Origin: an uncultured virus (IMG/VR IMGVR_UViG_3300035181_000912) | Taxonomy: Duplodnaviria; Heunggongvirae; Uroviricota; Caudoviricetes | DNA: 64,000 nucleotides | Reading direction: 5' to 3' (one strand) | IMG/VR virus record: IMGVR_UViG_3300035181_000912 | In this document: one piece after another, positions 1-61,613 of the stretch | Layout of the letters: each line of letters starts with the position of its first letter | Numbering within the stretch: the stretch's first letter is position 1 | Program-made: the position numbers and the translations under genes | The notes under the pieces: generated by a model | The model's input: the letters and a program-made list of their open reading frames with translations, nothing else | Told to the model about the DNA's origin: nothing | Databases searched by the model: none

Positions 1-20
1 GTCGTTTAAACGGGCAAGAC

Positions 21-662
21 TTACAAGAAGGACTCGCCAGACAGGCGCTCGTAGCAGACGGCCCATGCTTTGCCCGTGTTATCGTCCATCAGGTTCGACA
101 TGGTCGAGGTCGAACGCGACGAGCCGACTTTCGCGGCGCACAACGTCGCACGCAGCGACTCTTCCATCAGTGCCTCGGCCGTCGCGCCGCGCTTGAAGCC
201 CTCGAGCAGCCACTTCGCGACTTCGAACTCGGCAGCGGTTTCGCTGAACGAGCCAGCCCAGGACAGCGCGTAAACGGGAGACTTCTCCAGCTGAGCGGTG
301 AACTTCGCCAGTTCGCTCGGGAACGCAGCGACGGCAGCAGTGGCGCGGCGCACCGCGTTCGCCAAGTAGGCGTCCGGATGATCACCCTTAACCATCTCGC
401 GCCACGCGTCGAAGTCGACGCGGGCCAGCGCGCGGGCTTTTTGCGCGTCGTGATGCACGCGGTCAGCCGCCTCACGGGCTTCCTGGCGCAGCTCGCTTTC
501 GCGGGCCGCGGTCACGGCTTCCAGGACCTTCGTGTAATAGGTCGATTGCGTCCAGTGACGCTGCCACTTGACGTTGTGACGTGCGCCTAGCTCGGCACAC
601 ATAGCGACCGAGACCGAGGAGTTTTCAGCGAAGGCGAGGAAATCTTTGTTCGAGGTGGCCAT
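21..662 (-). CDS. hypothetical (probably early) protein
   Basis: ORF 21..743. The likely start is ATG 662, preceded by the recurrent leader CAACGGAGACTGAC and a TTGACG promoter with an operator-like palindrome. Confidence 0.7.
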   Translation of the reverse strand: MATSNKDFLAFAENSSVSVAMCAELGARHNVKWQRHWTQSTYYTKVLEAVTAARESELRQEAREAADRVHHDAQKARALARVDFDAWREMVKGDHPDAYLANAVRRATAAVAAFPSELAKFTAQLEKSPVYALSWAGSFSETAAEFEVAKWLLEGFKRGATAEALMEESLRATLCAAKVGSSRSTSTMSNLMDDNTGKAWAVCYERLSGESFL

Positions 663-711
663 GTCAGTCTCCGTTGCTGCGGGTCGCCCCATTGGCGGTC
701 CCGTGCCACAA

Positions 712-741
712 CGTATAAGTAAGTTATAGCACCTCGTCAAC
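712..741 (-). promoter_or_regulatory. sigma70-like promoter with embedded TATAA-N5-TTATA palindrome
   Basis: Minus strand reads TTGACG-aggtgc-TATAACTTACTTATA-cg: 17 bp from TTGACG to TATACG. A near-identical cassette lies at 8429-8467. Confidence 0.6.
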
Positions 742-877
742 ACCTTCCTTTCGGTATAACTCGTTTAGGTAGGTCCCAACTTTCACCCTTTTGCGCCCCA
801 ATGCGTTCGCTCATGATGGTAGTGCAAGGGCTTCGAAAGGCGCCTTTTCCATCACTGAACCCTCCAAGGAGCCGCCC

Positions 878-2812
878 ATGTATGGCCCAAGCCATCCAGT
901 TTCGATTGACCAGCATATCCAGAAGTACCGCATCGGGCCCGACGAGCAGTTCAGCGATATGTGCTTCCGCATCGCCCACACCCTCGCCGACGATGAAGGA
1001 CACCAGCGCGATATTTACCTGACCCTCCTTCATCAGAACTTCATGCCCGCGGGTCGCATTCAGCGCGCAGTCGGTGCACCCATGCAGATCTGCGCCCACA
1101 ACTGCTTCGTGTCCGGGACCATCAAGGACGACTCGGTGGACATCATTGACAAGGTGTCCGAAGCGTTCCTGACGATGCGGATGGGCGGCGGGATCGGTTA
1201 CGACTTCTCCACGCTGCGCTGGCGAGGCGCCTTCATCAAGTCTCTGCGTTCGACGGCCTCGGGTGCCGTCTCCTTCATGGAAATCTACAACGCGGCCTGC
1301 AAGACCGTTCGATCAGCAGGCGGACGCCGCGGAGCCCAGATGGGCGTCCTGCGTATCGACCATCCGGATATCGAGGAGTTTATCGACGCGAAGACAGCCG
1401 CCCTCGCTGACGACGTTCAGAAAGCTCAGATGCTCCTGAGCATTAAGCGCGCCGAACTTCAAGCCGAACTCGACCGCGTGGTCGCTGAGCACGGGCCGGC
1501 TTCCAAGAAGTCCTTCAACACTGCTTCGCGACTCGAGTGGTACAAGGAGCTCGAGCCCTTCATCATGGACATAGTCGAGAAGGTCTCGATCCAGAACCGG
1601 CTGTCGGCCTTCAACGTATCAGTGGCGGTCACCGATGACTTCATGAAGGCAGTTTCTGCTCACGGCACCTTCGACCTCGTCTTCAATGGCGAAGTGGTGC
1701 GCACCGTTGAGGCCTTCCCACTCTGGGAGAAGCTGATGCGCGCGACGTGGGATTGGGCGGAACCGGGTGTCTTGTTCATTGACCGGATCAACGACATGAA
1801 CAACCTCTACTACTGCGAGACCATCGCCGCCACCAACCCCTGCGGCGAGCAGCCCCTTCCTCCCTACGGCGCCTGCCTGCTCGGTTCGTTCACTGCGCCC
1901 AAGTACGTTCGCAAGTACGGGAAGCTCTACTTCTTCGACTACGAAGCCTTCAAGGCGGACATCCCTGGCATCGTGCGGATGATGGACAACGTTATCGACG
2001 AGGCACTCTACCCGCTGCCGCAGCAGGAGAAGGAAGCCAAAGACAAGCGCCGGATGGGCTTGGGTATGACGGGCATGGCGAACGCCATCGAAGCCATGGG
2101 CTACCCCTACGGCTCGGAAGCCTACATCACGGCCCAGGGGCAGATCCTGCGCGTCCTACTGAACGAGACCTACCGCGCGTCGGCTCTGCTCGCAAAGGAG
2201 AAGGGTCCGTTCTCGCTGTGGGACGCGGACAAGTTCATGACCGGCAAGTTCGTCACCAGTGGCGTAATCGACGATGACGTGCTGGAGCTGATCAATCGCC
2301 ACGGTCTGCGCAACTCGCACCTGACCAGCATCGCGCCGACGGGGACCATCTCGCTGACCGCGGACAATATGTCGTCCGGGATCGAGCCAGTGTTCTCCTA
2401 CAAGACAGGCCGCGAGATCATCAACGAGGACGGGGTTACCAAGTCCTATGTCGAGATTGACGACTACGGGGTGCGGGAGTTCGGCGTCAAGGGCCGCCGC
2501 GCCGACGACCTGACTGTTTTCGAGCATGTCCGCGTTTACACGGCTGCTCAGACCTTCGTGGACAGCTCGATCAGCAAGACCTGCAACGTCGGTGGCAACG
2601 TGACGTTCCCTGAGTTCATGCAGATCTACGTCCAAGCCTGGGAGCAGGGTGCGAAAGGCTGCACTACGTTCCGTCTCAACGGGAAGCGCTTCGGTATTAT
2701 GAAGTCGCTGGACGACGTCACCCCCGAGCATGAAGTTGAGTCTCTCGCCCTCGAGCCAGTGGGAGAGGCTTGCGTCTATGATCCTACCACCGGCACACGC
2801 TCCTGCGAGTGA
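878..2812 (+). CDS. nrdJ: ribonucleotide reductase, class II (B12-dependent) type
   Basis: Motifs PAGRI, NCFV, GGGIG, RRGAQM, TNPCGEQ, IAPTGTIS and a C-terminal Cys pair. No beta subunit gene nearby. AAGGAG RBS before ATG 878. Confidence 0.9.
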   Translation: MYGPSHPVSIDQHIQKYRIGPDEQFSDMCFRIAHTLADDEGHQRDIYLTLLHQNFMPAGRIQRAVGAPMQICAHNCFVSGTIKDDSVDIIDKVSEAFLTMRMGGGIGYDFSTLRWRGAFIKSLRSTASGAVSFMEIYNAACKTVRSAGGRRGAQMGVLRIDHPDIEEFIDAKTAALADDVQKAQMLLSIKRAELQAELDRVVAEHGPASKKSFNTASRLEWYKELEPFIMDIVEKVSIQNRLSAFNVSVAVTDDFMKAVSAHGTFDLVFNGEVVRTVEAFPLWEKLMRATWDWAEPGVLFIDRINDMNNLYYCETIAATNPCGEQPLPPYGACLLGSFTAPKYVRKYGKLYFFDYEAFKADIPGIVRMMDNVIDEALYPLPQQEKEAKDKRRMGLGMTGMANAIEAMGYPYGSEAYITAQGQILRVLLNETYRASALLAKEKGPFSLWDADKFMTGKFVTSGVIDDDVLELINRHGLRNSHLTSIAPTGTISLTADNMSSGIEPVFSYKTGREIINEDGVTKSYVEIDDYGVREFGVKGRRADDLTVFEHVRVYTAAQTFVDSSISKTCNVGGNVTFPEFMQIYVQAWEQGAKGCTTFRLNGKRFGIMKSLDDVTPEHEVESLALEPVGEACVYDPTTGTRSCE

Positions 2813-6567: not shown

Positions 6568-7296
6568 ATGGGTAGTGTCTCGATGCGGAAGCAACGCCAA
6601 GAAGAACGAAACTGGAAACCGCCGCAGATCGAGACCTTGACGCAGAAGCAGGCAACCTACCTGGAACTGCTTTCCCGCTTCGACTGCACCATCACAACAG
6701 GGCCCGCGGGCACAGGCAAGACTTACCTCGCGTGCGCTTGGGCTGGCGAAGCACTCGCGAACCACAACACTCGCGGGATCGTCCTCGCACGTCCCATCGT
6801 GCCCGTTGGGCGCACGCTCGGGATGCTGCCAGGTAAGCTGTCAGTCAAGATCGACCCCTGGGCGCGTCCGCTCGTCGAGGCGTTTAAACGTCAGATGTCT
6901 GCCAAGAAATACGAGGAGCACGTCCAGGCGGGAGCCATCAAGATCGAGGCGCTCGAGCACATCCGCGGCCTGACGTTCGACGACTGCGTGATGATCTTGG
7001 ACGAGGCGCAGAACACGACGCCTGCCGAGATGAAGGCCTTCCTGACTCGCATCGGGGACAACTCGTCGGTGATCATCTCGGGCGACGTGCGCCAGAGTGA
7101 CTTGCACCGCACGAATAACGGGCTGGCTTGGGCGCTGAAGGCGGTAGAGCGCGGCCTGGTACCAGACGTGGGGCTCGTCACGTTCACCAGCGCAGATACC
7201 GTGCGCTCTGAGCTTTGCCGCCTGTGGGGCGAGGCATTCGACACGCTCGAGGACGAGCAGGATACGAACGGTCGGCCTCTGCATCCCGCGTGGTAA
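6568..7296 (+). CDS. phoH: PhoH-like ATPase
   Basis: Motifs GPAGTGKT, RGLTFD, ILDEAQN and GDVRQSD. Confidence 0.92.
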   Translation: MGSVSMRKQRQEERNWKPPQIETLTQKQATYLELLSRFDCTITTGPAGTGKTYLACAWAGEALANHNTRGIVLARPIVPVGRTLGMLPGKLSVKIDPWARPLVEAFKRQMSAKKYEEHVQAGAIKIEALEHIRGLTFDDCVMILDEAQNTTPAEMKAFLTRIGDNSSVIISGDVRQSDLHRTNNGLAWALKAVERGLVPDVGLVTFTSADTVRSELCRLWGEAFDTLEDEQDTNGRPLHPAW

Positions 7297-10771: not shown

Positions 10772-11026
10772 ATGACAACCCATGGTGAGCTCTATGCCGT
10801 GAGCAAGAACGGTAAGTTCTTTGGCTACGCGGACGCAGGTCAGATTGCGCGCAGCGGCGGCCGTCTGGAACTGTTCGACGAGAATTCTGCGAAGGCCGCT
10901 CGTGCGCTGGCCGAGATCGAAGCAGCCAAGGCCCGCGAAGCGGCCGCTGGCACGAAGATCGACGAGGTCATGAAAGCCGGTGGTGCCGACGCGTCGGCCG
11001 TCAAGAAAGCGCCCTCCGCCACCTGA
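10772..11026 (+). CDS. hypothetical protein, possibly head-associated
   Basis: 84 aa ORF with AAGGA RBS after the capsid gene. Confidence 0.7.
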   Translation: MTTHGELYAVSKNGKFFGYADAGQIARSGGRLELFDENSAKAARALAEIEAAKAREAAAGTKIDEVMKAGGADASAVKKAPSAT

Positions 11027-11093
11027 GGCGCGTTCGACGTTTAAACGTGGGCGCGTTCATCCGAGCGCGCCCTTTCCCATACCTGAGGACGCC

Positions 11094-11481: not shown

Positions 11482-13146
11482 ATGGTCAAGGACAACCTAG
11501 CGACACCTCAGGAGACCTATGACTCGATGGTCCGGAACCATGGGTCAATGCGCGCCGTCGCTCGGGAGCTGGGCATGGCCCGCGGCTCGGTCAAGTATCG
11601 CCTCGAGCGCGCGGCAGAGATGGGCCTTGTCTACGACCGCCCCACATCTGGGGGCAAGCTGAAAGCTGCCCGTGCACGCCCCATGCTGCTGCCCAAGCAG
11701 GGGCAGATCAAGCGCTACATCATCACCTCAGCGCAGAACAATACCGACGCCTTCGTGCCATTCTTCGAGAACCTGGTCGCCTACGCGGAGATGCTCGATG
11801 CGCAAGTTCTGGTCGGGACCTATTCCTACAATCGCGCGTCCTTCAGCCAGAAGTCGACCAAGCGAGGCCGCGGGCCCACGGATGACGACCGGCGAGACGA
11901 CTGGTACGATCCGATCTTCGAGCCCTACTTCATGGACGAGCCGCTCGAACTCGCGCCCATGCTCGAATGGCGCGGTGAGCTGAACATCCTGCCTACTGCG
12001 AAGCGCCCGCTGAGCTCATTGGAGACCTATACGCAACGGCGGTCAGGCATCTTTCCTCATGCAAAGGTCTCCCTCGCATCTGTCGCGGGGACAGCTGACG
12101 ACGGCGCCAAGATGAACTACACGACGGGCACGGCCACCATGCTCAACTACGTCCAGAAGAAGGCAGGGCTTGAGGCCGAGTTCCACCATACCTATGCCGC
12201 GCTGATCGTGGAGGTCGATCACGAAGGCGACTGGCACGTCCGCCAACTGAACGCAGACAGCAACGGGTCCTTCTACGACATTCCAGATCTCGGAACGACA
12301 GGCGCCTGCTACGTCGACGCGGGCGAGGTCACCGCTGGGATCAACGTCGAGGCCGCGAATTGGGGCGACCTTCACGCGCGAGTCATAGACGAAGAGATCC
12401 GCGACCTGACCTTTCTCCCTAGAGGGATCCTCGACACGCTGCGCCCTGCGCATCAGTTCGCCCACGACATCCTTGACTTCAGAGCCCGCAACCACCACGA
12501 GATCAAGAACCACCACCAGATGTTCCTACGTCACCGCGAGGGGATTGAGGACGTGGCGTCCGAGGTTCAGAACGTGAAGGAACTGCTTGACTTGATGCAC
12601 CGTGACTTCTCGCTGACCGTCGTCGTCGATTCCAACCATGACCGTGCGCTCGAGCGCTGGCTGCAGGAGGCCGACTACAAGAAGGATCCTGTCAATGCGG
12701 TGTTCTTCCTCGAGTGCGAACTCGACTGGCACCGCACCAAAGCAGCCGACCCGAACGCCGACTACCACCACCTCAGGGAAGCTCTTCGTCGCATCGGCGT
12801 GTCCAAGGACGTCCTGTTCCTGGGCCCAGATGACTCCTTCGTCCTGTGCGACGACGGCTCAGGCGGGATCGAGTACGGGATGCACGGGCACCTAGGTCCG
12901 AACGGCGCACGGGGCTCGCCCCTGAACCTGTCGAAGATGGGCAGGCGCGCGAACACCGGCCACACCCACGCCGCTTGCATCGTTGACGGTCTCTATGTCT
13001 CAGGGACGTTCTCCCGGCTGCGCCTCGACTATAACAAAGGCCCGAGCGCGTGGTCCCACTCCTTCATCGTCACCTATCCCAACGGGAAGCGCGCCATCGT
13101 CACCATCTACAATGGGAAGTGGCGAGGCACCTCGTTTTCCACATAA
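11482..13146 (+). CDS. N-terminal HTH plus calcineurin-like metallophosphoesterase protein
   Basis: HTH SMRAVARELGMARGSVKYRL. Metallophosphoesterase-like motifs GDLH, HDILD, SNHD, HGH and GHTH. Confidence 0.75.
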   Translation: MVKDNLATPQETYDSMVRNHGSMRAVARELGMARGSVKYRLERAAEMGLVYDRPTSGGKLKAARARPMLLPKQGQIKRYIITSAQNNTDAFVPFFENLVAYAEMLDAQVLVGTYSYNRASFSQKSTKRGRGPTDDDRRDDWYDPIFEPYFMDEPLELAPMLEWRGELNILPTAKRPLSSLETYTQRRSGIFPHAKVSLASVAGTADDGAKMNYTTGTATMLNYVQKKAGLEAEFHHTYAALIVEVDHEGDWHVRQLNADSNGSFYDIPDLGTTGACYVDAGEVTAGINVEAANWGDLHARVIDEEIRDLTFLPRGILDTLRPAHQFAHDILDFRARNHHEIKNHHQMFLRHREGIEDVASEVQNVKELLDLMHRDFSLTVVVDSNHDRALERWLQEADYKKDPVNAVFFLECELDWHRTKAADPNADYHHLREALRRIGVSKDVLFLGPDDSFVLCDDGSGGIEYGMHGHLGPNGARGSPLNLSKMGRRANTGHTHAACIVDGLYVSGTFSRLRLDYNKGPSAWSHSFIVTYPNGKRAIVTIYNGKWRGTSFST

Positions 13147-16919: not shown

Positions 16920-19900
16920 GTGGTAACGCAGTCCAGCAGCCTTCGAGTAGGGATCGACTCAACTGACATGGAGTCGGGTGCCCGCAAGGGCGAGTCGGCG
17001 CTCGACCGCTTGGGCCTCAAGGCGCAACAAACTGAAACTCAGATGAGCGGCGTGACGAAGGCCGCGAGCATCCTTGGTAAGACGTTCGGCGCGCTCGTCG
17101 CGGGCATCGGCGTTGCTTCGGTGCTGGAACAGGCCACCACGGCTGCTCTCGACTTCGGCAAAGGCGTGTCGCTCATCTCGACCCAGGTCGATCCGCTCAC
17201 CTTCGATATGGACGCGCTGACCGCCGCGATGCGAGCGCAAGCCGTCGAGTTCGGGTCGCTTCCAACTGATCAGGTGAAAGCCGGCTACGACATTGTCTCG
17301 GCAGGAGCGACATCTGCAGCGAACGCAATCGAGACCCTGGATGCCGCGAACCGACTTGCCATTGGCGGGGCAACGGACGTGGGCACTGCTGCTGACGTTC
17401 TTACGTCGGTCCTCAATTCTTACGGCGACCAGGTCAAGAGCGTTGCTGCTGTGTCGGACACGCTGTTCATTGGTGCGCGTGCAGGTAAGACGACCATCGA
17501 AGAGCTCGCAGGATCTATCGGCAAAGTCGCGCCGCTAGCAGCAACTGCTGGCGTGTCCTTCGATGAACTGGTCGCATCCGTTTCCGCGCTCACCTTGAGC
17601 GGTGTGCGGACCACCGAAGCCGTGACAGGCGTCCGAGCTATCATGGCGTCGATTGTGAAGCCGACCAAGGAGGCTTCCGACCTTGCAGAATCGCTCGGTC
17701 TCCAGTTCGACGCGGCAGGCCTGAAGGCCCTCGGGTTCGCAGGCTTCATGGAGCAAGTGGTCGAAAAGACCCACGGCTCGACTGAGCAGATGGCGCTCCT
17801 GTTTGGGGGCGTTGAAGCTCTAGTCCCGGCCTTGGCGTTTGCAGGTAATGCAGGCGACTCGATGGCCAAGATCCTGCAACAGATGGCAACTGAGACTGGC
17901 GCGACCTCTGAGGCGTTTAAACGCATGTCCGAGGGTGACGCACAGCGCCTTTCCGTTGCCATGGCGCAAATCCGGGACCTTATGATCGACTTGGGGAGTG
18001 CGATCCTGACGGTCCTGGTTCCCGCGGTCGAGGTCATCGCGAAGACCTTCAAGTTCCTCGCCGACAACGTGGACATCTTGGTCATCGCCATGGGCGTGCT
18101 GGCAGCACGTTCGATCCCTGCGCTGATTGGCGGACTGGTCAGCACGGTGACTTTGCTCGGCACCATGGAAGGCATGTTCATCGCAGGCGCCGTCGCTTCG
18201 ACGGCTTTGGGCGTGGCGATGAACCTCATCCCCTTCGTTGCCGTTGTCACGGGTCTGACGCTGGCCTACCGCTGGTATATGTCAACGGGTAAAGCGACCG
18301 ACGCCTACGCGGCAAGCACACAACAGGCAGCCACTCAGAACGTCGAGTTGACAGGCACGCTCAAGAGCGTAGCTGACGGCTTGGCCGTGACGGGCGACGC
18401 GTTGAAAAGTCTCAGCGTCACCGAAGTGCTGACGGCTTCTGCCACGGCAGCAGATCAACTGAGTGAAGCCACAAGCAAAGTGGGCGACTCGATCATCGCC
18501 ATAGGTGAAGCCGCGCGCAGCGTCGCGGGCATCAACATTACCGAGGAAATGAGCGCGCAGTTCTACGACCTGGCAGTCGCAGTGGAAAAAGGTGAAAAGC
18601 CGTTCTCGGAGCTGAAGGGTCAGTTCGACGCACTTGGGCAAGCCTCGCCTGAGCTTCGCCCGTTCATTGCAGACCTGTTCGCAGCCGTCGGGGCCGCGGA
18701 CAAAGCGCGGGGCCACTCTGATCGTCTCGCGGCGGCGCTGCGCTACTTGAAAGGTGAAGCGACGGATGCTGACCAAGTGCTCCTTGGTCTCATCGGTGGG
18801 GCTGAAGGCGTCGCGGGATCTATGTCGAAAGCTGGCGCCGCGACCTATACGGCAATCCCACCCCTGGCCAAACTTCGCGCGCAGTACGGCGACCTTGCGT
18901 TGACCGTTCGCGATCTCCTTCAGGCGCAGAACGACCTCGCCGCGCAAGACGCCTCCGTCGAGATCAAAAATGTGGTGATTGCTACTTCCGCAGCCGTCGA
19001 GAAGATGGGCTTTGCGACGGCGGCTACCGAGACCTTCAAAACCAAGCTGAATGAGATCAAGACGCTCGACACATTCTCGGCGCAGGCGCAGGCTTTGACC
19101 CAAGTCGCAGCAGAGCTCGTCAACGCTACCGGTGGCGTGTCAAAGATGAATGCAGAGACCCGCAAGGTTTACGATAACCTGCTCGAAGCTGCTCTGAAGG
19201 CTGCTGACTTGGGTAGTCAGATCGACCAGGCGAACGGCAAGGCCGTGCCCCTAGCAGGCGACCTGACCAACGCAGGCAACGCAGCTCAAACCGCCGCGGG
19301 TGGAGCCGACGTCCTGGCAAACAAGTTGAACGTGGCATCTGCTGCGGCCTATGCCCTGCTGCGCAACCTCGCGGGGGTGCCTGCGGCCATCGGCGCGCTC
19401 GCCAATCAGGTCGACCAGCAGGTTGCAGCTCTCGCGCAGCAGAACCGCACGCTGACCTACCAGACAACGCAGGGCCTGTCTGCACAGGCCGCGGGTATCA
19501 AGGCGACGCGTGACGAGGCGATAAACCTGGCACTTGCGAACGGCGCCAACATCGACCAAGCGGCTGCTCTAGGCGCTGCGTTCGACGAGCAGGCAGGGAA
19601 AGCCGAGGCCCTCGCGACTGCTAACGCGGACCTGAGTACCGCTTTGAAGGCAACGGCTACTTCGGGCGCGGCTGCTGCGAGAGGCGCGAGTGCCGCGGGC
19701 AGCGCGGCTGCCAATGCGGAGAAAGACCTCGAGACCTTCACCAAGGGACTCGACACTGAGTTCGGCCGGCTGCAAGCGACGATGGGTGGCGCGGTCGATC
19801 AGGTCAACGCCTGGTATGCTGAGCAGAAAGCCAAACTCGACGCGTTGGGCCTCGCCCATACCGAGTACGCGAACAAGCTGGAAGCCATCTATAACGATCA

Positions 19901-28735: not shown

Positions 28736-28957
28736 TTACTTGGTTTCGCCCATGACTGGGCCCGTGACGGGAACGGCAGGCTTCTCTCGCAAGCTCTTGA
28801 GGGCTGCGTCGAGCAGCACGTTGACGTGCTCGGGGATCTTCTGGCGAGCGTTGCGGTAGTTGGAAATAGATTGCGGAGTCTTGCGCAGGTGGCTCGCCAT
28901 CTTGGCATTGGTCCACCCGAGCGACGACTGCCGACGTTTAAACTCGTCTGGCGTCAT
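28736..28957 (-). CDS. HTH (XRE-like) transcriptional regulator
   Basis: MTPDEFKRRQSSLGWTNAKMASHLRKTPQSISNYRNARQKIP. An operator-like palindrome lies upstream at 28991-29005. Confidence 0.8.
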   Translation of the reverse strand: MTPDEFKRRQSSLGWTNAKMASHLRKTPQSISNYRNARQKIPEHVNVLLDAALKSLREKPAVPVTGPVMGETK

Positions 28958-29039
28958 TCTCGGGCCTTTTGTTGCTTGCACCTTTGATAGCATAAGCGAC
29001 TTATACATCACGACCGGAAAACAAGGTCCAATGGTGCTT

Positions 29040-33806: not shown

Positions 33807-33965
33807 TCAAGGCAGGCTGGCGCGTTTAAACGCGCCAACCTATGAGGTCCTCAGGGGTTGAGGATCTTCCCGAACCGGAGGGATAAGCCACCCCAGGCCG
33901 GTGAGCCTAGCAAGGGCCGTTCTGACTAGACTCTGGTCAGTTATCAACAGCAGAAGGGGACGCCA

Positions 33966-38676: not shown

Positions 38677-39330
38677 GTGACCCAGTTCATCGCTCACGCC
38701 ACCGCACCTCGCACCTTCGCTGACAAGAAAGGCGCTACCAAAGCCATTAAGCGCGACCTCAACGCGCACTTCGAGAAGCACGGGGACGTGCTGTTCAATA
38801 CCGGCTTCGAAGTCAAGCCGACCGACGGTGATCGCTTCGGCGTCGTCCTGTTCCTCGACTTGACGCCCACCAACGCGCAGAAGCTGGTCGGCAAGGAGCT
38901 CGAGGGCTATGTGATCGAACCCGCGCTGAAGGAAGATCCCGCCAAGATCGAGCCGGCCGCGCCCGTCGAAGCCAAGCCCGAGCCGAAAGCCAAGTCCTCG
39001 AAAGAACCCGCCAAGGGCTCGCGTCGCAAGGGCCAGATCACGGTCGAGCCGAGCGTGCCGTTGCTAGCGTGCCGCGCTGGCTCGAAGCAGCAAGCTATCA
39101 TCGAAACCCTCGCCCGCGAAGGCGGCGCGACGCTCGAAGACCTGCGCAAGGTCTGCTTGAAAAGCGATGGCACGCCGTGGGACGACAACTCGATCCGCTC
39201 GGCGATGTACTTCGACCTCGAGTTGAAGGGCTACGGCACAACTACCCGGTTCGAGAACGACGTGGCGATCTACACGCTCGTCCTGCCCGAGGGCTACACG
39301 ACCTTCCTGCCGCCGAAGGTCAAGTCCTGA
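38677..39330 (+). CDS. two-domain protein with C-terminal winged-HTH (DUF3489-like)
   Basis: Pro/Lys/Ala linker followed by RAGSKQQAIIETLAREGGATLEDL...W...SIRSAM. Confidence 0.65.
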   Translation: MTQFIAHATAPRTFADKKGATKAIKRDLNAHFEKHGDVLFNTGFEVKPTDGDRFGVVLFLDLTPTNAQKLVGKELEGYVIEPALKEDPAKIEPAAPVEAKPEPKAKSSKEPAKGSRRKGQITVEPSVPLLACRAGSKQQAIIETLAREGGATLEDLRKVCLKSDGTPWDDNSIRSAMYFDLELKGYGTTTRFENDVAIYTLVLPEGYTTFLPPKVKS

Positions 39331-39410: not shown

Positions 39411-39471
39411 GCCTGTGCGTTTAAACGAGCAGGCTCCTGTGATGGACAAACCAGGAAAGGAAAACCATCCC

Positions 39472-41930: not shown

Positions 41931-43286
41931 ATGCACCTCTATATGTCTGGCACCCCTAGGAATGACCCCTATCAGTCGGTCGAGAATCGGATGAATACTC
42001 ACCGCCTGTTCTCGATGCACGGCGAGTATGAGAAGTCGGTCATGCGCTGGGTCAAGGATCTTCGCGACGGTATCATGGATGCAAACCAATACCTGCGCGC
42101 CTACCCGCAGCACATTAACCTGATCAAGAACCGCGACGCGCGCAGGCGTGAACAGCAACGCGACTACGGGCGCACCTTCGACTGGGACACAGCGGAAGTC
42201 CTTGAGACGGTGTGTCAGCGTTTAAACGGGCGCCCCTATCCGAAGGCTATCCTGCTCGACTCGGGCGCGTTCACCGCCTGGAACAAGGGTGAGGAGACAA
42301 CCGTTGACGATGTGAAGCGGAAGTACTCCTCGTTCATTGAGGCCGCGGGTGGCTTGTTCGACGAGATCTGGGGCATCAACCTCGACGTGATCCCAGGCGC
42401 GAAAGGCCGCGACCCGACGCCTGACGAACTGAAGCGCGCGGTCGAGGTTTCGGACGTCAACTTCGAGATCCTGGTCAAGGAGTTCGGCAACATCATCCTG
42501 CCCGTCTATCACCAGGGCGAACCGGTCGAGCGGCTCGCAGAGTGCGCGCAGCAGGTAGATGGCAAGTCGAACTATATCTGCGTGTCACCGCGGAACGACC
42601 TCGCAGAGGGCTACCGCGTCTCTTGGTCGCGCGACGCTCATGCTGAACTCAAGCGTAGCTGGCCTGAGATCAAGACCCACGGCCTCGCGACGACGGGAAA
42701 CAAGATGGTCAGGACCGTACCGTGGTTCTCGGGCGACTCCGCCGCTTGGGTGCAGCATGGCGGCTACGGTATGATAGACATCTTCCACGACGAGGACCAC
42801 TCGTTCGGCCGGAAGAAGGACCCGCACTACATGAACTACTTCGTCTCCTTCGAGAACGTCGGTTACAACCTGGACGCGCAGATCAAGACGAAAGACGGCC
42901 GCATTATCAGGATGCTCGACTTCGGCTTTGTGCCGGATGAGAAGCATACTGATGGTCCTTTGAAGGGGCAAGTCAAGGTCTATGGAACACCTCGACGGGT
43001 CATAGCAGATGCCTTGACGGCCGCAGGTGTTTCTGAGGACAACTTCCCCTACCACCAAGAGTCTGGCCATATGCACGACGCGGGCAAGTCCTACTTCAGT
43101 CTGATGCCGAAGCACCGCGACTACATCAGGGGGCGCGTCGAGGCGCTCGGGTTCCCATTCGAAGTGTGCATCTGGGACTCGCGCGTTCGAAACCTGATCT
43201 GCATGGCCGAGTTCGTCACGTTCTCGGAATGGGCCAAGACGTCAGTGAAGGACCCATGTCAGACCTATCTGCTTGATGACCTCTGA
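41931..43286 (+). CDS. TGT-superfamily (DpdA-like) DNA deazaguanine transglycosylase
   Basis: Motifs LLDSGAFTAW, NLDVIP, PVYHQGE, THGLA and GDSAAW, within the que cluster. Confidence 0.75.
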   Translation: MHLYMSGTPRNDPYQSVENRMNTHRLFSMHGEYEKSVMRWVKDLRDGIMDANQYLRAYPQHINLIKNRDARRREQQRDYGRTFDWDTAEVLETVCQRLNGRPYPKAILLDSGAFTAWNKGEETTVDDVKRKYSSFIEAAGGLFDEIWGINLDVIPGAKGRDPTPDELKRAVEVSDVNFEILVKEFGNIILPVYHQGEPVERLAECAQQVDGKSNYICVSPRNDLAEGYRVSWSRDAHAELKRSWPEIKTHGLATTGNKMVRTVPWFSGDSAAWVQHGGYGMIDIFHDEDHSFGRKKDPHYMNYFVSFENVGYNLDAQIKTKDGRIIRMLDFGFVPDEKHTDGPLKGQVKVYGTPRRVIADALTAAGVSEDNFPYHQESGHMHDAGKSYFSLMPKHRDYIRGRVEALGFPFEVCIWDSRVRNLICMAEFVTFSEWAKTSVKDPCQTYLLDDL

Positions 43287-46568: not shown

Positions 46569-46949
46569 ATGAGCATCTTTGGTAACCTGTTCCGCGGCCT
46601 GATCGACTCGATTTTAGGCAAGGCTGAACCCGAAAGCATCTTCCCAGGCGTGATGGGCAAGATCCTTGCTCACGAAGGCATCTACGCCATCGGTCCGCAC
46701 AATCGCACAGGCACGCCCATGTCTGTCCTGAATGGCTGCAAGGAAGAGCTCGTCCTCATTCCTGGCGCGTCGGCGCTGGCTTTCACGAAGGAAGGGAAGC
46801 CTATCATGGCGAAAGCCAAGACCGGTCGCGCTTACCAGGTCACCGAGAATTACGCGGTGACGCGCAAGCAGTGGAAAGCCATGCAGAACGACCAGAAGCG
46901 CAAGGCCGCAGGCAAAGCCGTCGTCTTCGGTTTCCCGGAGTCCGCTTGA
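46569..46949 (+). CDS. hypothetical protein
   Basis: AAGGAG RBS, 126 aa. Confidence 0.7.
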   Translation: MSIFGNLFRGLIDSILGKAEPESIFPGVMGKILAHEGIYAIGPHNRTGTPMSVLNGCKEELVLIPGASALAFTKEGKPIMAKAKTGRAYQVTENYAVTRKQWKAMQNDQKRKAAGKAVVFGFPESA

Positions 46950-47768
46950 ATGTTCGGACACAACGAGATCGTGGGGGCGAGGTCTTTCCAGTCAGAGACT
47001 GAGCTCCTGGTCACCTCGTACTTCGTCACGATGCAGGGGGAGGGACCATACTCGGGCCTTCCCGCTGTCTTTGTGCGACTCGCGAAGTGCAACCTTGCCT
47101 GCTCCTTCTGCGATACCTACTTCGACTCTGGCGACTGGATGACGTTCAAGGAGCTGACTACGCGTTTAAACGACGCGGTGTGGGAACTCCCGCTGTCCAT
47201 GGACGAGTATGTCCTCGTGATCACGGGTGGTGAACCGATGCTGCAGAAGGCACTCGGTCACTGGCTCGAGACCCAGATGGGCGAGTGGCGGAACGTCCAG
47301 ATCGAGTCCAATGGGACCTTGGTTCAGGCGATCCCCGAAGGCGTCACCTTGGTCGTGTCACCAAAGTGTGCCGAGAGGAACGGGAAGGCGACGAAGTACC
47401 TGACCCCACGGGCCGAGATGCTCGACCGCGCGAACTGCCTCAAGTTCGTGATGGAAGCAGATCCCAACTCGCCCTACTCGACTGTGCCCGATTGGGCTCT
47501 GGACTGGAAGAAGGATACGGGTGGTGAGATCTACGTCTCGCCCATGAACGTCTATGCGCGGGAACCCGAGAAAGCCAAGACCTTGCGCTCGAAGAACGAG
47601 TCGACCATCGAGCAACGCTCGACGGTTGAGGAGGTCATCTCGTTCTGGGAACCCGGACTGCTGAACCTTGAGGCGAACCAGCGGAACCACGAGTATGCCG
47701 CCAAGTACTCGATTACCCGCGGCTTGCGTTTCCAGGTTCAGGCGCATCTGTTCGCGTCGGTGGCCTGA
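46950..47768 (+). CDS. queE: 7-carboxy-7-deazaguanine synthase (radical SAM)
   Basis: Motifs TMQGEGP, CNLACSFCDT, ITGGEP, IESNGT and VSPK. Confidence 0.93.
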   Translation: MFGHNEIVGARSFQSETELLVTSYFVTMQGEGPYSGLPAVFVRLAKCNLACSFCDTYFDSGDWMTFKELTTRLNDAVWELPLSMDEYVLVITGGEPMLQKALGHWLETQMGEWRNVQIESNGTLVQAIPEGVTLVVSPKCAERNGKATKYLTPRAEMLDRANCLKFVMEADPNSPYSTVPDWALDWKKDTGGEIYVSPMNVYAREPEKAKTLRSKNESTIEQRSTVEEVISFWEPGLLNLEANQRNHEYAAKYSITRGLRFQVQAHLFASVA

Positions 47769-51349: not shown

Positions 51350-51613
51350 ATGGGCAACAAGATCCGCATCGTCAAGCGGTATAAGGATTGGTCGCCCTTC
51401 GCAGGGATGGAAGAAGCGGACACCGTCGAGATCGAGGACGGGGCCGAGGGCGCCGCGCGGTTCATCACCGCGGTCAACGCGTCCGACCAGCTCGACTACC
51501 AGATCATCGACTACGAGGTGGCGCTCGTAACCACGATGAACCGGCCGGAGCTGATCACGAATCCGACCGGCGGTGGAGTCGGAAAACTGCTGCTACCCGG
51601 TAAGGACTATTGA
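51350..51613 (+). CDS. hypothetical protein
   Basis: GAGGAG RBS. Confidence 0.6.
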   Translation: MGNKIRIVKRYKDWSPFAGMEEADTVEIEDGAEGAARFITAVNASDQLDYQIIDYEVALVTTMNRPELITNPTGGGVGKLLLPGKDY

Positions 51614-51663
51614 CAGTGACTGGGGTGCATTCCATCGTTCAACCTATCAACGGAGGGACTGGA

Positions 51664-52188
51664 ATGCACCTACGAGTTGCACACCGCCAGATAGGGGATA
51701 CCGCGATCCAATGCGGTCCTGATCTCGAGCACTACTTCATCATCGGATCCCGCTTCGAAGCCATCTACCTGGACGAGCTGAAAGCGCTCTACGTCACGCG
51801 ATGCGCCCGCGGGTCGATCTGCATGGCTGACCAGACGGTCTACAGAAACAAGGGCTACTCCCGCACTGTGATAGTCAACTCGCTTCCGGAATGGATCCCT
51901 GCATTCACCATCAAGGCGGTTGAGTTCACCCTCGACGGGGATCTACTCGTCTGGCGGCGCCCGCCCATCTGGACTCTTGGCTGGCCGCAGAAGGGGATTA
52001 TGACCGATCCCGCCCGCAACCATCAGGCGGTGGTCAAAGGTCTGCAAGAGCGCCTAAGATCTGCGAAACGCAACGGCATAGATCCGCGCAAGGTCACTTG
52101 CGCCGTGCCGGCCTGGGCAAAGTCATCGCTTGCACCAGGTGAGTGGATGGCCGTCGTTCGCGAAGTGTTTCCGGGTCACCATGTTTAA
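51664..52188 (+). CDS. hypothetical protein
   Basis: CAACGGAGG leader. Confidence 0.6.
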   Translation: MHLRVAHRQIGDTAIQCGPDLEHYFIIGSRFEAIYLDELKALYVTRCARGSICMADQTVYRNKGYSRTVIVNSLPEWIPAFTIKAVEFTLDGDLLVWRRPPIWTLGWPQKGIMTDPARNHQAVVKGLQERLRSAKRNGIDPRKVTCAVPAWAKSSLAPGEWMAVVREVFPGHHV

Positions 52189-52193
52189 ACGGG

Positions 52194-52232
52194 TTGACGG
52201 GCTCCTGTGGGCGCGCGTATAAGCCAGTTATA
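52194..52232 (+). promoter_or_regulatory. promoter with operator-like palindrome
   Basis: TTGACG-18 bp-TATAAGCCAGTTATA. Confidence 0.55.
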
Positions 52233-57266: not shown

Positions 57267-57627
57267 CAACCACGGCGAACTGGCCGAGTCTATTGCGGAA
57301 CGTGACGCGCGGTTGGTCGCTCCCACGACTGACTACATGGATCAAGGCGCCGACCCCAAGCCCGATCACGCGGGCCTGTCTACGGGGATGCTCGTGGGCA
57401 TGTCGCCCGGCTGGGAGCCTGTGGTCACGCTCGGCGGGCAGGCGCAGATCGTGCACCCCGGCTGGTCAATCACTCGGATGTGGGCGACGATGTACCAGGC
57501 GATTGCCGAGTCGTCGAAGTACCGCTTCTGCGGTCAGGGGACGACTCCCGGAGAGGCGCTTGAAGACGCCCGGAAGCAGATGATAACCTTCCGGGATGAA
57601 CTCGACAAGCACCTGGAAACCTACTGA
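57253..57627 (+). CDS. hypothetical protein
   Basis: GGAG RBS, coupled to neighbouring genes. Confidence 0.6.
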   Translation: MQQGDNHGELAESIAERDARLVAPTTDYMDQGADPKPDHAGLSTGMLVGMSPGWEPVVTLGGQAQIVHPGWSITRMWATMYQAIAESSKYRFCGQGTTPGEALEDARKQMITFRDELDKHLETY

Positions 57628-58073
57628 TGTCTGAAACCAGCGCGACACGCACCCTCCGCACCCACCTGCAGGCCGATGGAGCCCACTGTCAGCGGTTCGA
57701 GGACAAGCTGTCCTCCGGCATCCCTGACACCATGGCCTGCATCAACGGCCTGACCATCTTCCTCGAAGGGAAGTTCCTCAAGGACCTGCCAATCAAGGAC
57801 ACGACCTTGATCCGCTTCGGTTCAACCGGTGAGCCTCGACTCGCGCACCAGCGCAACTGGCTGGTCGCGCATCGCAAGGCGGGTGGGTTGGCATTCTGGT
57901 GGGTGCGCGTTCGCGATGCTGGATGGTACCTGTTCGAGGACAAGTTCAACTGGCTCGTTGACGGCGTGCCGAAGAAGATCTTCCTCGAGCAGGAAAACCT
58001 GGGCTCCGCGAAGGCAATGGCGGCACGTTTAAACGCGCTGGTGGACAAGCAGATCAAGGAGGGTTGGCTTTGA
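57627..58073 (+). CDS. PD-(D/E)XK nuclease, Holliday junction resolvase/VRR-NUC-like
   Basis: GIPD...FLEGK...Q..WL......GG pattern. Confidence 0.8.
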   Translation: MSETSATRTLRTHLQADGAHCQRFEDKLSSGIPDTMACINGLTIFLEGKFLKDLPIKDTTLIRFGSTGEPRLAHQRNWLVAHRKAGGLAFWWVRVRDAGWYLFEDKFNWLVDGVPKKIFLEQENLGSAKAMAARLNALVDKQIKEGWL

Positions 58074-58714: not shown

Positions 58715-59061
58715 AGAAGTGGATCTATATTCCTGGGGCGGGCGAGTTCCTAGGCGAAGGCACCTGGCACGAAGTGCGCGGCGACCTGATGGAACAGGAC
58801 TTCGCCGCGTGCAAAGCGGCGAACTCCCTACCCGCGGTCTGGGAGGTTTCGGAAGCCGAGATTATTGCTGATCCGCGTGGCAAGGAACCGAACTTCATCA
58901 TGCGCGCGGGCATGCTCGTGCACCAGTTCCACCGCGTCGCAATCGCTATCCCGGCCGTCGCTGATCAGCGCGCGATCCAGTTCGCGCGCCTCCAGCTGAA
59001 GGACTTCCTTGAGAAGGTCTTGGCGGTAGATGGCACGGTGAACAAGGAGTGCTCGTCGTGA
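58711..59061 (+). CDS. hypothetical protein
   Basis: GTG start overlaps the previous stop. GAGGAGG RBS. Confidence 0.6.
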   Translation: MKKWIYIPGAGEFLGEGTWHEVRGDLMEQDFAACKAANSLPAVWEVSEAEIIADPRGKEPNFIMRAGMLVHQFHRVAIAIPAVADQRAIQFARLQLKDFLEKVLAVDGTVNKECSS

Positions 59062-59215
59062 AGTTCTGGTACTTCAATGCAGGCATGGTAACCGCCGTCG
59101 TCGTGCTACTGGCTGGCTACGGACTTCACTCGTTGCAGGACGACATTGCCCGCGCGCGGCAAGGGCTCATTGTCACTTCGATCATCCAGGACATCCTCAA
59201 CACTGGTACCAAGAA

Positions 59216-59539
59216 ATGATCATCTTCCGCAACGACGGAGTAGTGCCTATCGCGGCTTTCACCACCTTTGGCATGTCAGCCAAGCCTGGGTCGACCAACC
59301 CCAATGGCTTGTCCGCGACCGAGGAAGTGAAGATCGAGATGGAAGTGCACGCCTGGGCGCGCATCCTGAAACTGCTCGAGGACAACGAGGACGCGGCAGC
59401 CCCCGGTCTCCGTGAGCAGCTCGAGGAGGCGGGCTGGAAGGACGTCGAAAAGCAGTCCGAGGACGTCGAAGACGAGGACGAAGAGCCGCTCGTCGTCGCG
59501 CCCGTCGAGCTGGAGGCTATCGAGGATATGCCGTTCTAA
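59216..59539 (+). CDS. hypothetical protein, possible deletion remnant of a GHKL-type ATPase gene
   Basis: N-terminus IFRNDG...FTTFGMSAK...NP-G, then an abrupt acidic tail ending EDMPF. Confidence 0.5.
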   Translation: MIIFRNDGVVPIAAFTTFGMSAKPGSTNPNGLSATEEVKIEMEVHAWARILKLLEDNEDAAAPGLREQLEEAGWKDVEKQSEDVEDEDEEPLVVAPVELEAIEDMPF

Positions 59540-59630
59540 GATCTGAAACTGACATTGCGTATAACTCGCTTATGCCCGAACGTGATTCCACTAGATCAAC
59601 CGTGCTAAAACCGCATCAACGGAGCCCCCG

Positions 59631-61613
59631 ATGAACGACTTCCAAGCCTTCTCGAAAGCAGTCGAAGCGAAGTTCGCCGCCATGTCACAGGGTGAGCTCT
59701 TCGTCGTCGAGGTCGAAGACATCTTCGACTCCTACCTCGCGGCATTCCCTGCGGGATCGAACCCGATCTACCGCGAACGCACCGAGCACGACTGCTCCTG
59801 CTGCAAGCACTTTGTGCGGCACCTGGGTCACGTCGTCGCGTTCGGCGCGGGTGACCAGCGCACGTCGATCTGGGACATTGACGGCCTACCCGAGCCCTAC
59901 GCGACGGTCGCCGCGCGCATGTCGGCCCTGGTTGATCAAATGCCGATCAAGACGGTCTACCGCACGAAGGAGCACCGGTTCGGCATTGAATCGAACCTGG
60001 GACTGGTCGACGGTGAGACCCGCAAGTTTAACCACTTTGTCGGTCAGATCGCGTCGCGGCACTACGCAGCGGAACCCGACACCGCGCGGTCGAACCTTGA
60101 AGCCGTCGCGCAGGTCCTGCGCCGTGGCCTTGAGGAGCTCAAGATCGAGGCCTTCGATGCGGTACTCGACCTGATCGACTCGAAAGCAATCTACCGCGGT
60201 GCTGAGTTCCGTGAGCAGGTCACCTCGTTTAAACGGCTCGTCCAGGCGTTCGCGGTGAAGTCGCCGTCCGACCGCGAGGCCTTCGTCTGGGATCACCTGG
60301 ACGAACCGGCTGCGCGCTTCCGGAACACTGCAATCGGAACACTGCTCGTGGACCTGTCCGAAGGTGTCGAGATCGAACACGCGGTGAAGTCCTTCGAGGC
60401 GAAGGTGGCGCCGACGAACTACAAGCGCCCGACCGCGCTGATCACGGCGAAGATGGTGGACCTTGCGGTAGCCAAACTGAGCGAGCTCGGATTGACGACT
60501 GCAGTTGAGCGTCGGTTCGCTCGCCTGTCTGACGTGACGGTGAACAACGTGCTCTGGGTGGACAACTCGGTCAAGGGCTCGATGAAGGGTGGAATTTCTG
60601 GTCTCTTGTCCGGCGACGTTAAGGTGCCGTCGGTCGACCTGCGGACGGCTTCGCTGATCATGATGGATGACTTCCTGACCGACGTGATCCCGACGGCGAC
60701 CAGCATCAAGCTGGCCCTCGAGAACAAGCACCTGAGCAACTTCATGTCGCTCACCGCGCCTGTTCACCCGGACGCGGGGAACCTGTTCAAGTGGGATAAC
60801 AACTTCGCTTGGTCTTACGACGGCGAGGTGACCGACTCGATCAAGGAACGCGTCAAGGCCGCGGGCGGTAACGTCACTGGCACGATGCGCGTCTCGCTCG
60901 GGTGGCACAATTTCGACGACCTCGACCTCCATGTGATCGAACCCAACGGGAACCGAATCTCCTTCTACAACAAGTGCAACAAGCTGGACGTGGACATGAA
61001 CGCGGGCGGCCATCATTCGCGTGATCCCGTCGAGAACGTGACGTGGCAAGGCAAGCTGGCCGATGGTGAGTACCAGGTCATCGTCAACCAGTACATGAAG
61101 CGGGAATCCGTTGACGTCGGGTTCACGCTCGAGGTTGAGTATGCCGGATACATCAAGCAGTACTCGATGCCGACGTCCCCGACTGGTGAACTGTACTGCC
61201 TCAAGCTGAAGGTCCAGTCGGGCAAGCTGGCTGAGGTCACCATGCTGAAGAAGATGACCGTCGGGTCGTCGTCGCAAGAGAAGTGGGGCGTATCGTCGCA
61301 GAGGCTCATCCCGGTCGACACGCTGATGCTGTCCCCGAACTTCTGGGATGGGCAGACCATCGGCAACAAGCACTGGTTCTTCATGCTTCACGGCCTGAAG
61401 AACCCCAACGCCACCCGCGGGATCTACAACGAGTTCCTGCGTTCGACCCTCGACCCGCACCGGAAGGTCTTCGAGGTGCTGGGCGCGCGGACCAAGTGCC
61501 TGCCTGCCGATGACCAGCTGTCTGGTGTCGGCTTCTCGTCAACCCGTGGCGACCGGGCTACCGTCGTCGTCAATGAGTCGGGCAAGTCCCACGCATTCAA
61601 CGTCCAATTCTGA
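59631..61613 (+). CDS. large phage protein with CSCC motif and YfaP-like domain
   Basis: HDCSCCKHF, and DLDLHVIEP...LDVDMNAG...PVENV. Operator-like site at 59560-59574. Confidence 0.8.
   Translation: MNDFQAFSKAVEAKFAAMSQGELFVVEVEDIFDSYLAAFPAGSNPIYRERTEHDCSCCKHFVRHLGHVVAFGAGDQRTSIWDIDGLPEPYATVAARMSALVDQMPIKTVYRTKEHRFGIESNLGLVDGETRKFNHFVGQIASRHYAAEPDTARSNLEAVAQVLRRGLEELKIEAFDAVLDLIDSKAIYRGAEFREQVTSFKRLVQAFAVKSPSDREAFVWDHLDEPAARFRNTAIGTLLVDLSEGVEIEHAVKSFEAKVAPTNYKRPTALITAKMVDLAVAKLSELGLTTAVERRFARLSDVTVNNVLWVDNSVKGSMKGGISGLLSGDVKVPSVDLRTASLIMMDDFLTDVIPTATSIKLALENKHLSNFMSLTAPVHPDAGNLFKWDNNFAWSYDGEVTDSIKERVKAAGGNVTGTMRVSLGWHNFDDLDLHVIEPNGNRISFYNKCNKLDVDMNAGGHHSRDPVENVTWQGKLADGEYQVIVNQYMKRESVDVGFTLEVEYAGYIKQYSMPTSPTGELYCLKLKVQSGKLAEVTMLKKMTVGSSSQEKWGVSSQRLIPVDTLMLSPNFWDGQTIGNKHWFFMLHGLKNPNATRGIYNEFLRSTLDPHRKVFEVLGARTKCLPADDQLSGVGFSSTRGDRATVVVNESGKSHAFNVQF

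Follow-up and report, generated by a model that had tools for sequence, protein, structure and literature searches.

Of the described systems, the nearest in kind to the one reported here is the stoperator array of the Cluster A mycobacteriophages (L5 gp71-type; PMC9283540, PMC6550527), in which, according to the available sections of those papers, tens of copies of one short word lie genome-wide, within as well as between genes and in one case at a promoter, and are served by one phage-encoded reader, the helix-turn-helix repressor of a temperate phage. A further likeness is offered by HIP1 (GCGATCGC), an octamer palindrome of cyanobacteria, which the available part of the relevant paper (PMC5861425) describes as occurring far above chance, also in genes, and as being selected on DNA, with its function open. 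Here we describe an array of another palindromic octamer, GTTTAAAC, in a stretch of 64,000 nucleotides from an uncultured virus of the Caudoviricetes (IMG/VR record IMGVR_UViG_3300035181_000912), the whole of which we call the window, together with its association with a phage gene (52263..52853, plus strand) for a SprT-like zinc protease of 196 amino acids with a C-terminal zinc ribbon, our candidate for the reader of the word. Resting on co-occurrence, position and co-variation, the reading that we favour, with a probability of about 0.7, is that the copies of GTTTAAAC are kept by selection as an array of docking sites at which the phage's own SprT-like protein binds the double-stranded DNA of the phage.

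A stoperator is an asymmetric word that follows the direction of transcription, whereas the word of the window is a palindrome, its asymmetric variants in related phages lie both ways round, its copies are evenly spaced and it is kept in phages whose hosts belong to several phyla. The proposed reader also differs, being a zinc-ribbon, protease-like protein in a phage that is reported, in the accessible parts of the literature, to be lytic; a family search of the window proteins found no repressor or integrase family. The likeness extends to the copy at a promoter, here the site at 52183, which precedes a predicted one. The nearest known kind is accordingly the Cluster A stoperator array, from which the present array differs in reader, symmetry, spacing and range. 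HIP1, as far as the accessible account goes, is a feature of cellular genomes at about one copy per gene, whereas the window word is carried by phages, is far less frequent, recurs at even intervals and is linked to a single phage gene. As regards the protein, the comparison is with the SPRTN, Wss1 and SprT metalloproteases (PF10263; structures 6MDW and 6MDX; PMC5127644, in its available part), which have an HExxH motif and a third histidine like the window protein and, as it appears to do, a zinc-binding part following the protease. In the literature searched, which took in the available parts of the R5C, R26L and Pan1 genome papers and left most subscription journals outside its coverage, so that absence is not proven, we found no description of these arrays or of the pairing of gene and word, nor of an array of a cognate word for SPRTN-type proteases. 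Known members of the SPRTN type bind DNA by its structure and are not known to read its sequence.

In the window GTTTAAAC occurs 14 times against 0.22 expected (standard deviation 0.48), and none of 100 dinucleotide shuffles gave more than 2. Eleven copies are the 10-mer CGTTTAAACG, the recognition site of PmeI, and those at 28935, 30261 and 52182 differ at one flank. An earlier reading of the letters alone, the original prediction, had listed the same coordinates, the same division into perfect and variant copies and a largest gap of about 6.9 kb, which we measure as 6878 bp; its GC content of about 62% proved too high, the window having 59.8%. Of the 15 occurrences of TTTAAA, all except one at 8493 fall within GTTTAAAC. 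Our own gene list of 78 open reading frames (ORFs; 94% coding) places nine copies fully inside ORFs, five read as F-K (TTT AAA) and four as L-N (TTA AAC), and the copy at 52183 provides the TAA stop of ORF 51610..52188. The nine intragenic copies, the two readings and the stop codon, too, agree with the prediction, as does the rarity of the codons: TTT accounts for 11% of Phe, AAA for 21.5% of Lys and TTA for 1.7% of Leu in the window, TTTAAA is found in 5 of 42 F-K dipeptides and TTAAAC in 4 of 72 L-N dipeptides. Synonymous codon shuffling within genes, one of the nulls that it had suggested, yields 0.55 ± 0.71 intragenic copies (maximum 4 in 2000) where nine are observed. Five of the 14 copies are not fully inside ORFs, more than the non-coding share of some 6% would lead one to expect (binomial P=1e-3). 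The under-dispersion of spacing that it had proposed to look for is likewise found, at about one site per 4.5 kb (coefficient of variation, CV, 0.37; P=1.5e-4 against random placement), and a one-letter variant, CGTTTACACG (that is, CGTGTAAACG on the opposite strand), lies at 2533 within the largest gap. The information of the site is limited to 10-12 bp, position +1 being G in 87% of half-sites and +2 being C in 43%, with nothing further. Long conserved flanks of the type of repetitive extragenic palindromes (REP) or miniature inverted-repeat transposable elements (MITE) were not found, conservation stopping at ±2 nt from the octamer and nine of the 14 copies standing in frame within genes. 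Metagenome contigs from four runs show 5 differences in 20 kb, none of them at a site.

The window derives from a Nanhaivirus-like siphophage with about 75% nucleotide identity to the Dinoroseobacter phages R26L and R5C and to the Pseudanabaena phage Pan1, which together with the window make up our four named genomes. In all four GTTTAAAC is the top over-represented 8-mer and CGTTTAAACG the top 10-mer, with 20 copies in R26L (20 of its 20 TTTAAA), 17 in R5C (17 of 19) and 16 in Pan1 (16 of 16); the spacing is again under-dispersed (CV 0.36, 0.59 and 0.51, respectively; P from 1.5e-4 to 0.016 over the four genomes). Three cultured relatives and many metagenomic ones exclude the possibility, raised at the outset, that the sites are artefacts. 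Homologous positions are occupied in all four genomes at window 30262 (SNF2 helicase gene), 39419 (before queC) and 58027 and in three at the phoH site, and dpdA has its site at three different places in the window, R26L and R5C. At a position that lacks the site in one genome, common codons encode the unchanged amino acids, the phoH sequence GCG TTT AAA CGT of the window being GCG TTC AAG CGC in the relative G004 and the SNF2 sequence CGT TTA AAC being CGC CTG AAC in the relative G002. The CGTGTAAACG variant appears once each in the window, R26L and G004, every time inside one of the largest gaps. Synonymous changes both create and remove sites. It is the DNA word, and not the protein, that selection acts on, as the original prediction had held, and both the conservation and the turnover in relatives that it wanted examined are seen. 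The pattern is what would be predicted from selection on site density and spacing rather than on particular places.

The word itself can change. G002 has most of its genes in common with the window, yet it carries 11 copies of GTGTAAAC, 10 of them as CGTGTAAACG, in an evenly spaced array (CV 0.47, P=0.009), and its sole remaining GTTTAAAC is the homologue of the 52182 copy, upstream of the SprT operon; comparison of the two genomes shows a whole-array switch of word in this close relative. The complete, Nanhaivirus-like G004 has the thinnest array of the group, 10 copies in 67 kb and three variant sites.

How closely the word follows the gene can be asked from either side. Starting from the gene, two IMG/VR scans with protein alignments gave 38 usable SprT-like loci of ±10 kb (L010, which is R5C, and L018, a false match, being left out), in which a family of 20 words, [GC]T-N-TA-N-A-[CG], was tested with Bonferroni correction, 73 PhoH-selected loci from unrelated phages serving as controls. 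A family word is enriched at P<0.01 in 31 of the 38 loci and in none of the 73 controls, and at P<1e-4 in 27 and again none. An unbiased 8-mer screen brought out asymmetric one-letter variant words in several loci, G002, G007 and G009 among them, that look free of a word when palindromic 8-mers alone are considered: G009 has 16 GTGTAAAC and G007 has 19 CTGTAAAG with 2 CTTTAAAG. The last two words are also those of loci L059-64, while G005 has 7 GTGTACAC, L055 has 6 GTCTAAAC and the fragment G010 combines 11 GTTTAAAC with 10 GTGTAAAC. Within ±10 kb the SprT ORF is the sole ORF common to about ten (at least nine) array-bearing lineages, and it is the only gene that G010 has in common with the entire 64-kb window. 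Among 49 PhoH-selected whole records a strong match to phrog_6361 occurs in one alone (G017), which holds 15 GTTTAAAC in 62 kb; in the 44 records that are not Nanhaivirus-like and have no strong match, the copies of GTTTAAAC number 26 and those of the reversed control 75. Starting instead from the word, we took 76 IMG/VR loci chosen solely for two GTTTAAAC within 25-55 bp (79 loci less 3 duplicates) and defined an array by P<1e-8. Arrays are present in 34 of them, and a SprT-like gene lies within the locus in 20 of these 34 and in none of the 40 non-array loci. A search of the whole records of the other 14 arrays recovered three full-length genes (records of 41-63 kb) and three ORFs of about 55 residues that consist of the zinc ribbon only (short records); the remaining eight, in which no gene match was found, are fragments of 5-13.5 kb, 9-31% complete. 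The association of gene and word thus holds in both directions.

It also extends over a wide range of phages, the hosts of array-bearing lineages including an alphaproteobacterium (on which, according to their records, R5C and R26L were isolated), a cyanobacterium (the host of isolation of Pan1, as given in the available part of PMC9837993), Methylophilales, E. coli, Pseudomonas and Arthrobacter. In the Arthrobacter phage Powerpuff (68% GC), where 0.13 copies of GTGTAAAC would be expected, 27 are found at even spacing (CV 0.54, P=6e-4), oriented 20:7, a partial bias in a genome with nearly all genes on one strand. At five Powerpuff sites (locus L149; 34931, 35656, 41032, 41449 and 41702) C-T-A-G-A-C-T directly precedes the word; all five lie in the right arm of the genome, and one of them stands 44 bp before the SprT-like gene. 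They probably represent a class of promoter with the word built in. In the Cluster AZ preprint (bioRxiv 10.1101/2025.05.26.655371), as far as its available text goes, the 'SprT-like protease' (Lizalica gp46, Powerpuff gp49), a homologue with 45% identity to the window protein, is itself presented as a second DNA-binding protein, conserved and situated near the integrase, and the dispersed word that we count in Powerpuff receives no mention there. The Methylophilales phage Venkman (34% GC) has 34 GTTTAAAC, 30 of them within its first 14.6 kb; copies at 2154, 2375, 2611, 3789 and 4002 (locus L152) occupy junctions of 2-3 nt between small early genes, where the TAA of the word can act as a stop codon, as it does at window 52183. 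Homologues of the gene are found in 164 cultured phage records, annotated 'SprT-like protease' or 'transcription elongation protein'; R5C gp103 and ep3 gp60 are further homologues by name. A scan of genome contigs gave only two bacterial homologues (L147, L148), neither of them with Q-x-T-R or an array.

The SprT-like protein of the window matches PF10263 with 28.4 bits (cut-off 25.6; E 1.6e-6) and phrog_6361 with E 3.2e-55. Its HExxH motif is H85-E-L-I-H89 with the third histidine at H98, invariant in all four Nanhaivirus proteins, and the segment Q153-x-T155-R156-M-x-K159 stands just before the zinc-ribbon cysteines C160/C162/C165 ... C184/C189. An AlphaFold2 model has a predicted local distance difference test score (pLDDT) of 88.7, and its top Foldseek matches are the human SPRTN structures 6MDW and 6MDX (probability 0.99 and 0.97), over 217-219 columns that cover both the protease and the zinc-binding parts. 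The two parts can part company, however. In G010 (18927-19541) and L017 (10007-10621) HExxH is lost (C-D-S-L-C-H) and the zinc ribbon and Q-T-T-R-M are kept, with arrays present, and HExxH is lost in G011 as well. Three short records, L195 (5782-5964), L197 (2211-2396) and L207 (minus strand, record 2895-3038), encode a protein of only about 55 residues, with Q-x-T-R and the zinc ribbon and no protease part; their GTTTAAAC arrays are denser than any others (15-40 copies in 7-18 kb), with sites within 40-60 bp upstream of the mini-ORF.

The position of the sites points in the same direction as their co-occurrence with the gene. A site lies just upstream of the SprT-like gene in every Nanhaivirus genome. 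In the window, Pan1, G005, L061/62/64, L065, Powerpuff, ep3 and Persinger a site stands 20-80 bp before the gene, adjoining a putative TTGAC(A) promoter or lying inside it; in L046-54, L061/62/64 and L065 it is inside the predicted promoter spacer. The phages ep3 and Persinger have only four sites each in 42-44 kb, and one of these stands 20 and 26 bp, respectively, before the gene. In the window the promoter-like element, read from the sequence, is TTGACG, 18 nt, TATAAG (52194..52232, plus strand), its -10 part lying inside the near-palindrome TATAAGCCAGTTATA. The segment before the first zinc-ribbon cysteine is Q-[STG]-T-R in all GTTTAAAC lineages. An outer G in the word always goes with Arg at window position 156, and both lineages with an outer C (L059-64 and L013/G007) have Ala, Ser or Tyr there. 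The residue preceding the Arg tends to follow the third base of the word, T going with T, and N, C or S with G or C, G002 and Powerpuff being exceptions. In relatives the asymmetric variants face either way (7:4, 12:4 and 11:8), which would argue against a polar signal.

Should the copies of GTTTAAAC indeed be docking sites, the SprT-like protein would read the word by its C-terminal zinc-ribbon module, with the Q-x-T-R-M-x-K segment taking part and Arg156 reading the outer G. The site set against the -35 hexamer of the gene's own promoter suggests that the protein probably feeds back on its own synthesis, and the remaining sites would station it about every 4.5 kb over the chromosome, within genes where intergenic DNA is not at hand. 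As for the consequence of docking, we tentatively favour, for this phage, a protease of the SPRTN type, activated by DNA, which on phage DNA would remove proteins that sit on or travel along it, or would cut itself. Retention of HExxH in most lineages would argue that proteolysis matters. Next most likely, and rather unlikely taken by itself, is a role in binding only, as a roadblock or a global regulator; it is suggested by the lineages that keep the array with the zinc-ribbon part only or have lost HExxH. More broadly, and with considerable doubt, one may conceive of a two-part address system in phages of many phyla, in which a zinc-ribbon reading head, usually fused to a SPRTN-type protease, is matched by a cognate 8-bp word ([GC]T-N-TAAA-[CG]) placed at intervals; the word would keep the protease on phage DNA and switch it on, which would clear the DNA of host proteins bound to it or moving on it, or destroy itself as a switch, and word and residues would co-evolve, as with Arg156 and the outer G, the arrays being rewritten when the reader changes, as in G002.

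A number of observations weigh against the docking of the SprT-like protein or against parts of its proposed action. No family word is enriched at P<0.01 in seven of the 38 SprT-like loci (L012, L014, L043, L056, L058, L063, L066), and many of the 38 are related, the independent lineages numbering about ten. One of the seven, L012 (in G006), has some 20 copies of ATTAATAC / GGTATTAA (0.4 expected) and a protein with Q-T-F-Q in place of Q-x-T-R, and may be a more distant change of word. The code is imperfect in that G002 and Powerpuff have Q-T-T-R-M as in the GTTTAAAC phages, yet their word is GTGTAAAC. G004 keeps its 10 sites with a SprT-like gene (13471-13848, minus strand) that has an in-frame TGA at a conserved Trp, which could be a sequencing error, read-through or the mark of a decaying system. 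The fold match to SPRTN has a low template modelling (TM) score of 0.31-0.37 and a root-mean-square deviation of 13 Å, so the arrangement of the domains is different or uncertain, and pLDDT is lowest (74-79) around the proposed reading segment. The zinc-binding part of SPRTN is known for single-stranded DNA and not for reading a word. The loss of HExxH in G010 and G011, together with the phages that have the zinc ribbon only, speaks against proteolysis as the core function; because G010 and G011 lack the motif and three phages with dense arrays have the reading head alone, binding by itself could keep an array. The SprT-like protein is not among the 19 R5C virion proteins in the available Table S8 of PMC12014285, from which it follows that, unless it was missed there, it does not act at injection, its action coming, in all probability, once it has been expressed. 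Binding of the word by the protein, the residues that would read the word and the consequences of binding are things that we infer rather than observe. This leaves room for a rival, improbable in our estimation, in which another phage factor or a conserved host factor reads the word and the SprT-like gene merely travels along or acts on that factor, for example by cleaving it. Of the points just listed, the imperfect code of G002 and Powerpuff, the interrupted gene of G004 and the seven loci that have no family word all tell in its favour. The difficulty lies in finding such a factor: no other ORF family is common to the array-bearing lineages within ±10 kb, G010 and the window have nothing but the SprT-like gene in common, and arrays are kept alongside the zinc-ribbon-only mini-proteins. 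A host-specific factor or signal is unlikely because the hosts belong to several phyla. Among phage proteins, we considered the product of 46569..46949 as a reader and rejected it, a profile search having found a divergent homologue in G002 and none in other lineages. The original prediction had suggested that the sites bind a phage or host protein; they do look like binding sites for a phage protein, but none of the three candidates that it named (38677..39330, 11482..13146 and 28736..28957) follows the word outside the Nanhaivirus genus.

The sites might instead be signals at the level of the DNA that have no dedicated reader: programmed nick or cut sites, AT-rich islands that melt readily for replication or recombination to begin, or signals used in packaging or ejection. 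An AT core in DNA of 60% GC, even spacing genome-wide with no tie to gene boundaries, and long palindromic flanks at some sites (18 bp at 33823) would all suit such signals, as would the fact that the window opens 2 nt before a site, which has a chance of a few in a thousand. However, an independent metagenome contig of 80,465 bp wraps around the first bases of the window and runs through its first site, and for that reason the genome is a circular assembly of about 80.4 kb and the start of the window no physical end. The information does not reach beyond 10-12 bp, asymmetric variants face either way in the proportions given above, the AT-rich Venkman keeps the same word, so that local melting cannot be the point, and the complete G007 and G009 keep arrays although they have no replication or packaging gene in common with the window, all of which makes this explanation poorer still than a different reader. 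Much further down we place the suggestion, also made at the outset, that the sites load or target the machinery for 7-deazaguanine modification of DNA. The window does encode the full set (QueC, QueD, QueE, QueF, GTP cyclohydrolase I and a DpdA-like protein), one site precedes queC, dpdA and queE each contain another, and the word has G at both ends; but the dpdA and queE sites are found only in the window and the relative G003, G007 (21 sites), G009 (16) and the fragment G010 have no dpdA or que homologue at E<1e-5, and none is listed in the annotations of Powerpuff, Venkman, ep3 and Persinger. Equally hard to sustain is a word directed at the host, whether a Chi-like signal for a nuclease that processes breaks or a decoy or target of a restriction system recognising GTTTAAAC. 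Its density of about one per 4.5 kb resembles that of Chi in E. coli, and a palindrome would work from both ends; Chi-like signals, however, are polar and host-enriched, while this word is a palindrome that belongs, as a family, to phages of at least five host groups, is not enriched in the control phages and was exchanged for another word over the whole array of a close relative. Two bacterial genomes, neither from a host of this phage, are poor in it, with 7 copies in 2.8 Mb and 4 in 0.6 Mb, under the 26 and 21 of the reversed control.

Some readings at the level of RNA or of genome size were also considered and set aside. U UUA AAC is a slippery heptamer, and a frameshift signal was rejected on finding the word in all three frames and between genes. 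A hairpin or terminator was rejected because the flanks extend the palindrome by at least 3 pairs at only 14% of 87 sites, and a scan for promoters and terminators in window 28000-40000 found no excess. The spacing of about 4.5 kb recalls the headful size of a gene-transfer agent, an idea that was dropped because other lineages space the word at 1-2.3 kb.

The individual sites of the window are distributed as follows. Site 1 (3..12), a CGTTTAAACG copy, is outside any ORF, just past the end of the minus-strand ORF 21..743, and the variant CGTTTACACG (2533..2542) lies in the ribonucleotide reductase gene and is the same 10-mer as the array word of G002. The phoH site (6881..6890), in the F-K frame, is common to R5C and Pan1 and synonymously erased in R26L, G002 and G004. 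Next comes an intergenic site (11038..11047), also in R26L, 12 nt past the stop of ORF 10772..11026 and before a GC hairpin followed by T-rich sequence. The sites in the tape measure gene (17914..17923) and in the gene for a tail protein of 600 amino acids (24643..24652), the latter also in Pan1, are both in the F-K frame. At 28935..28944 a CGTTTAAACT site, also in R26L, belongs to a divergent region that has the lysis and tail genes on one side and the replication genes on the other; it falls in a small ORF of the minus strand, 28736..29011, and a TATAAGCGAGTTATA-type element follows 47 nt further on, at 28991. The CGTTTAAACA site of the SNF2 helicase gene (30261..30270), in the L-N frame and flanked by a 10-nt inverted repeat, is kept in all four named genomes and G004 and synonymously erased in G002. 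Two further intergenic sites are that at 33823..33832, which lies within an 18-bp perfect palindrome after ORF 32919..33806 and is also in R26L, and that at 39418..39427, just upstream of queC, present in all four named genomes, G003 and G004. The dpdA-like gene (42219..42228) and queE (47163..47172) have theirs in the L-N frame. The TGTTTAAACG site (52182..52191) supplies ORF 51610..52188 with its stop and is followed 3 nt later by the -35 hexamer of the promoter predicted for the SprT-like gene. The site near the end of ORF 57627..58073 (58026..58035, L-N frame) is in all four named genomes and G003, and the last is in the gene for a protein of 660 amino acids at 59631..61613 (60226..60235, F-K frame). 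The names 'HTH' and 'resolvase', given earlier to ORFs 28736..29011 and 57627..58073, find no support in Pfam.

Among its other genes, the window encodes ribonucleotide reductase, PhoH, structural and tail proteins, ThyX, the SNF2 helicase, primase, helicases, DNA polymerase A and a clamp loader. A near-palindrome, TATAAGCGAGTTATA, has 14 matches in the window at no more than 3 mismatches against 0.3 expected (714-769, 8436-8512, 13142, 28991, 38330, 52218, 54733, 58266, 59560 and 62122), nearly all intergenic and with two pairs in divergent regions; its TATAAG part resembles a -10 hexamer, and the element may be of a promoter or operator type belonging to the phage. R26L has about 10 copies of a 10-mer related to it. 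The product of 46569-46949 (126 amino acids) has no family match and is confined to the Nanhaivirus group; its R5C homologue (gp94, 130 amino acids) is listed among the proteins of purified virions (0.26%, coverage 44%; PMC12014285, Table S8, in the part available). The DpdA-like protein (41931-43286, 451 amino acids) has no Pfam family at E<=1e-3 and a match to phrog_887 (queuine tRNA-ribosyltransferase) at 2e-55; given that QueF is encoded as well, preQ0 may not be the end point of the DNA modification.

The sites constrain the choice of codons in essential genes and provide a simple sequence signature by which phages of this type can be found. Cultured phages that could serve as models grow on harmless hosts, R5C and R26L on Dinoroseobacter, Powerpuff on Arthrobacter and ep3 on E. 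coli. The even spacing, the rewriting of arrays and the co-variation of one residue with one base amount to a natural experiment in the co-evolution of a protein with its sites. If the pairing of word and SprT-like protein holds, a very common phage gene of unknown role would gain a concrete and testable function and, if the proposed mechanism is true, the fold of a DNA-dependent protease can be aimed at a sequence.

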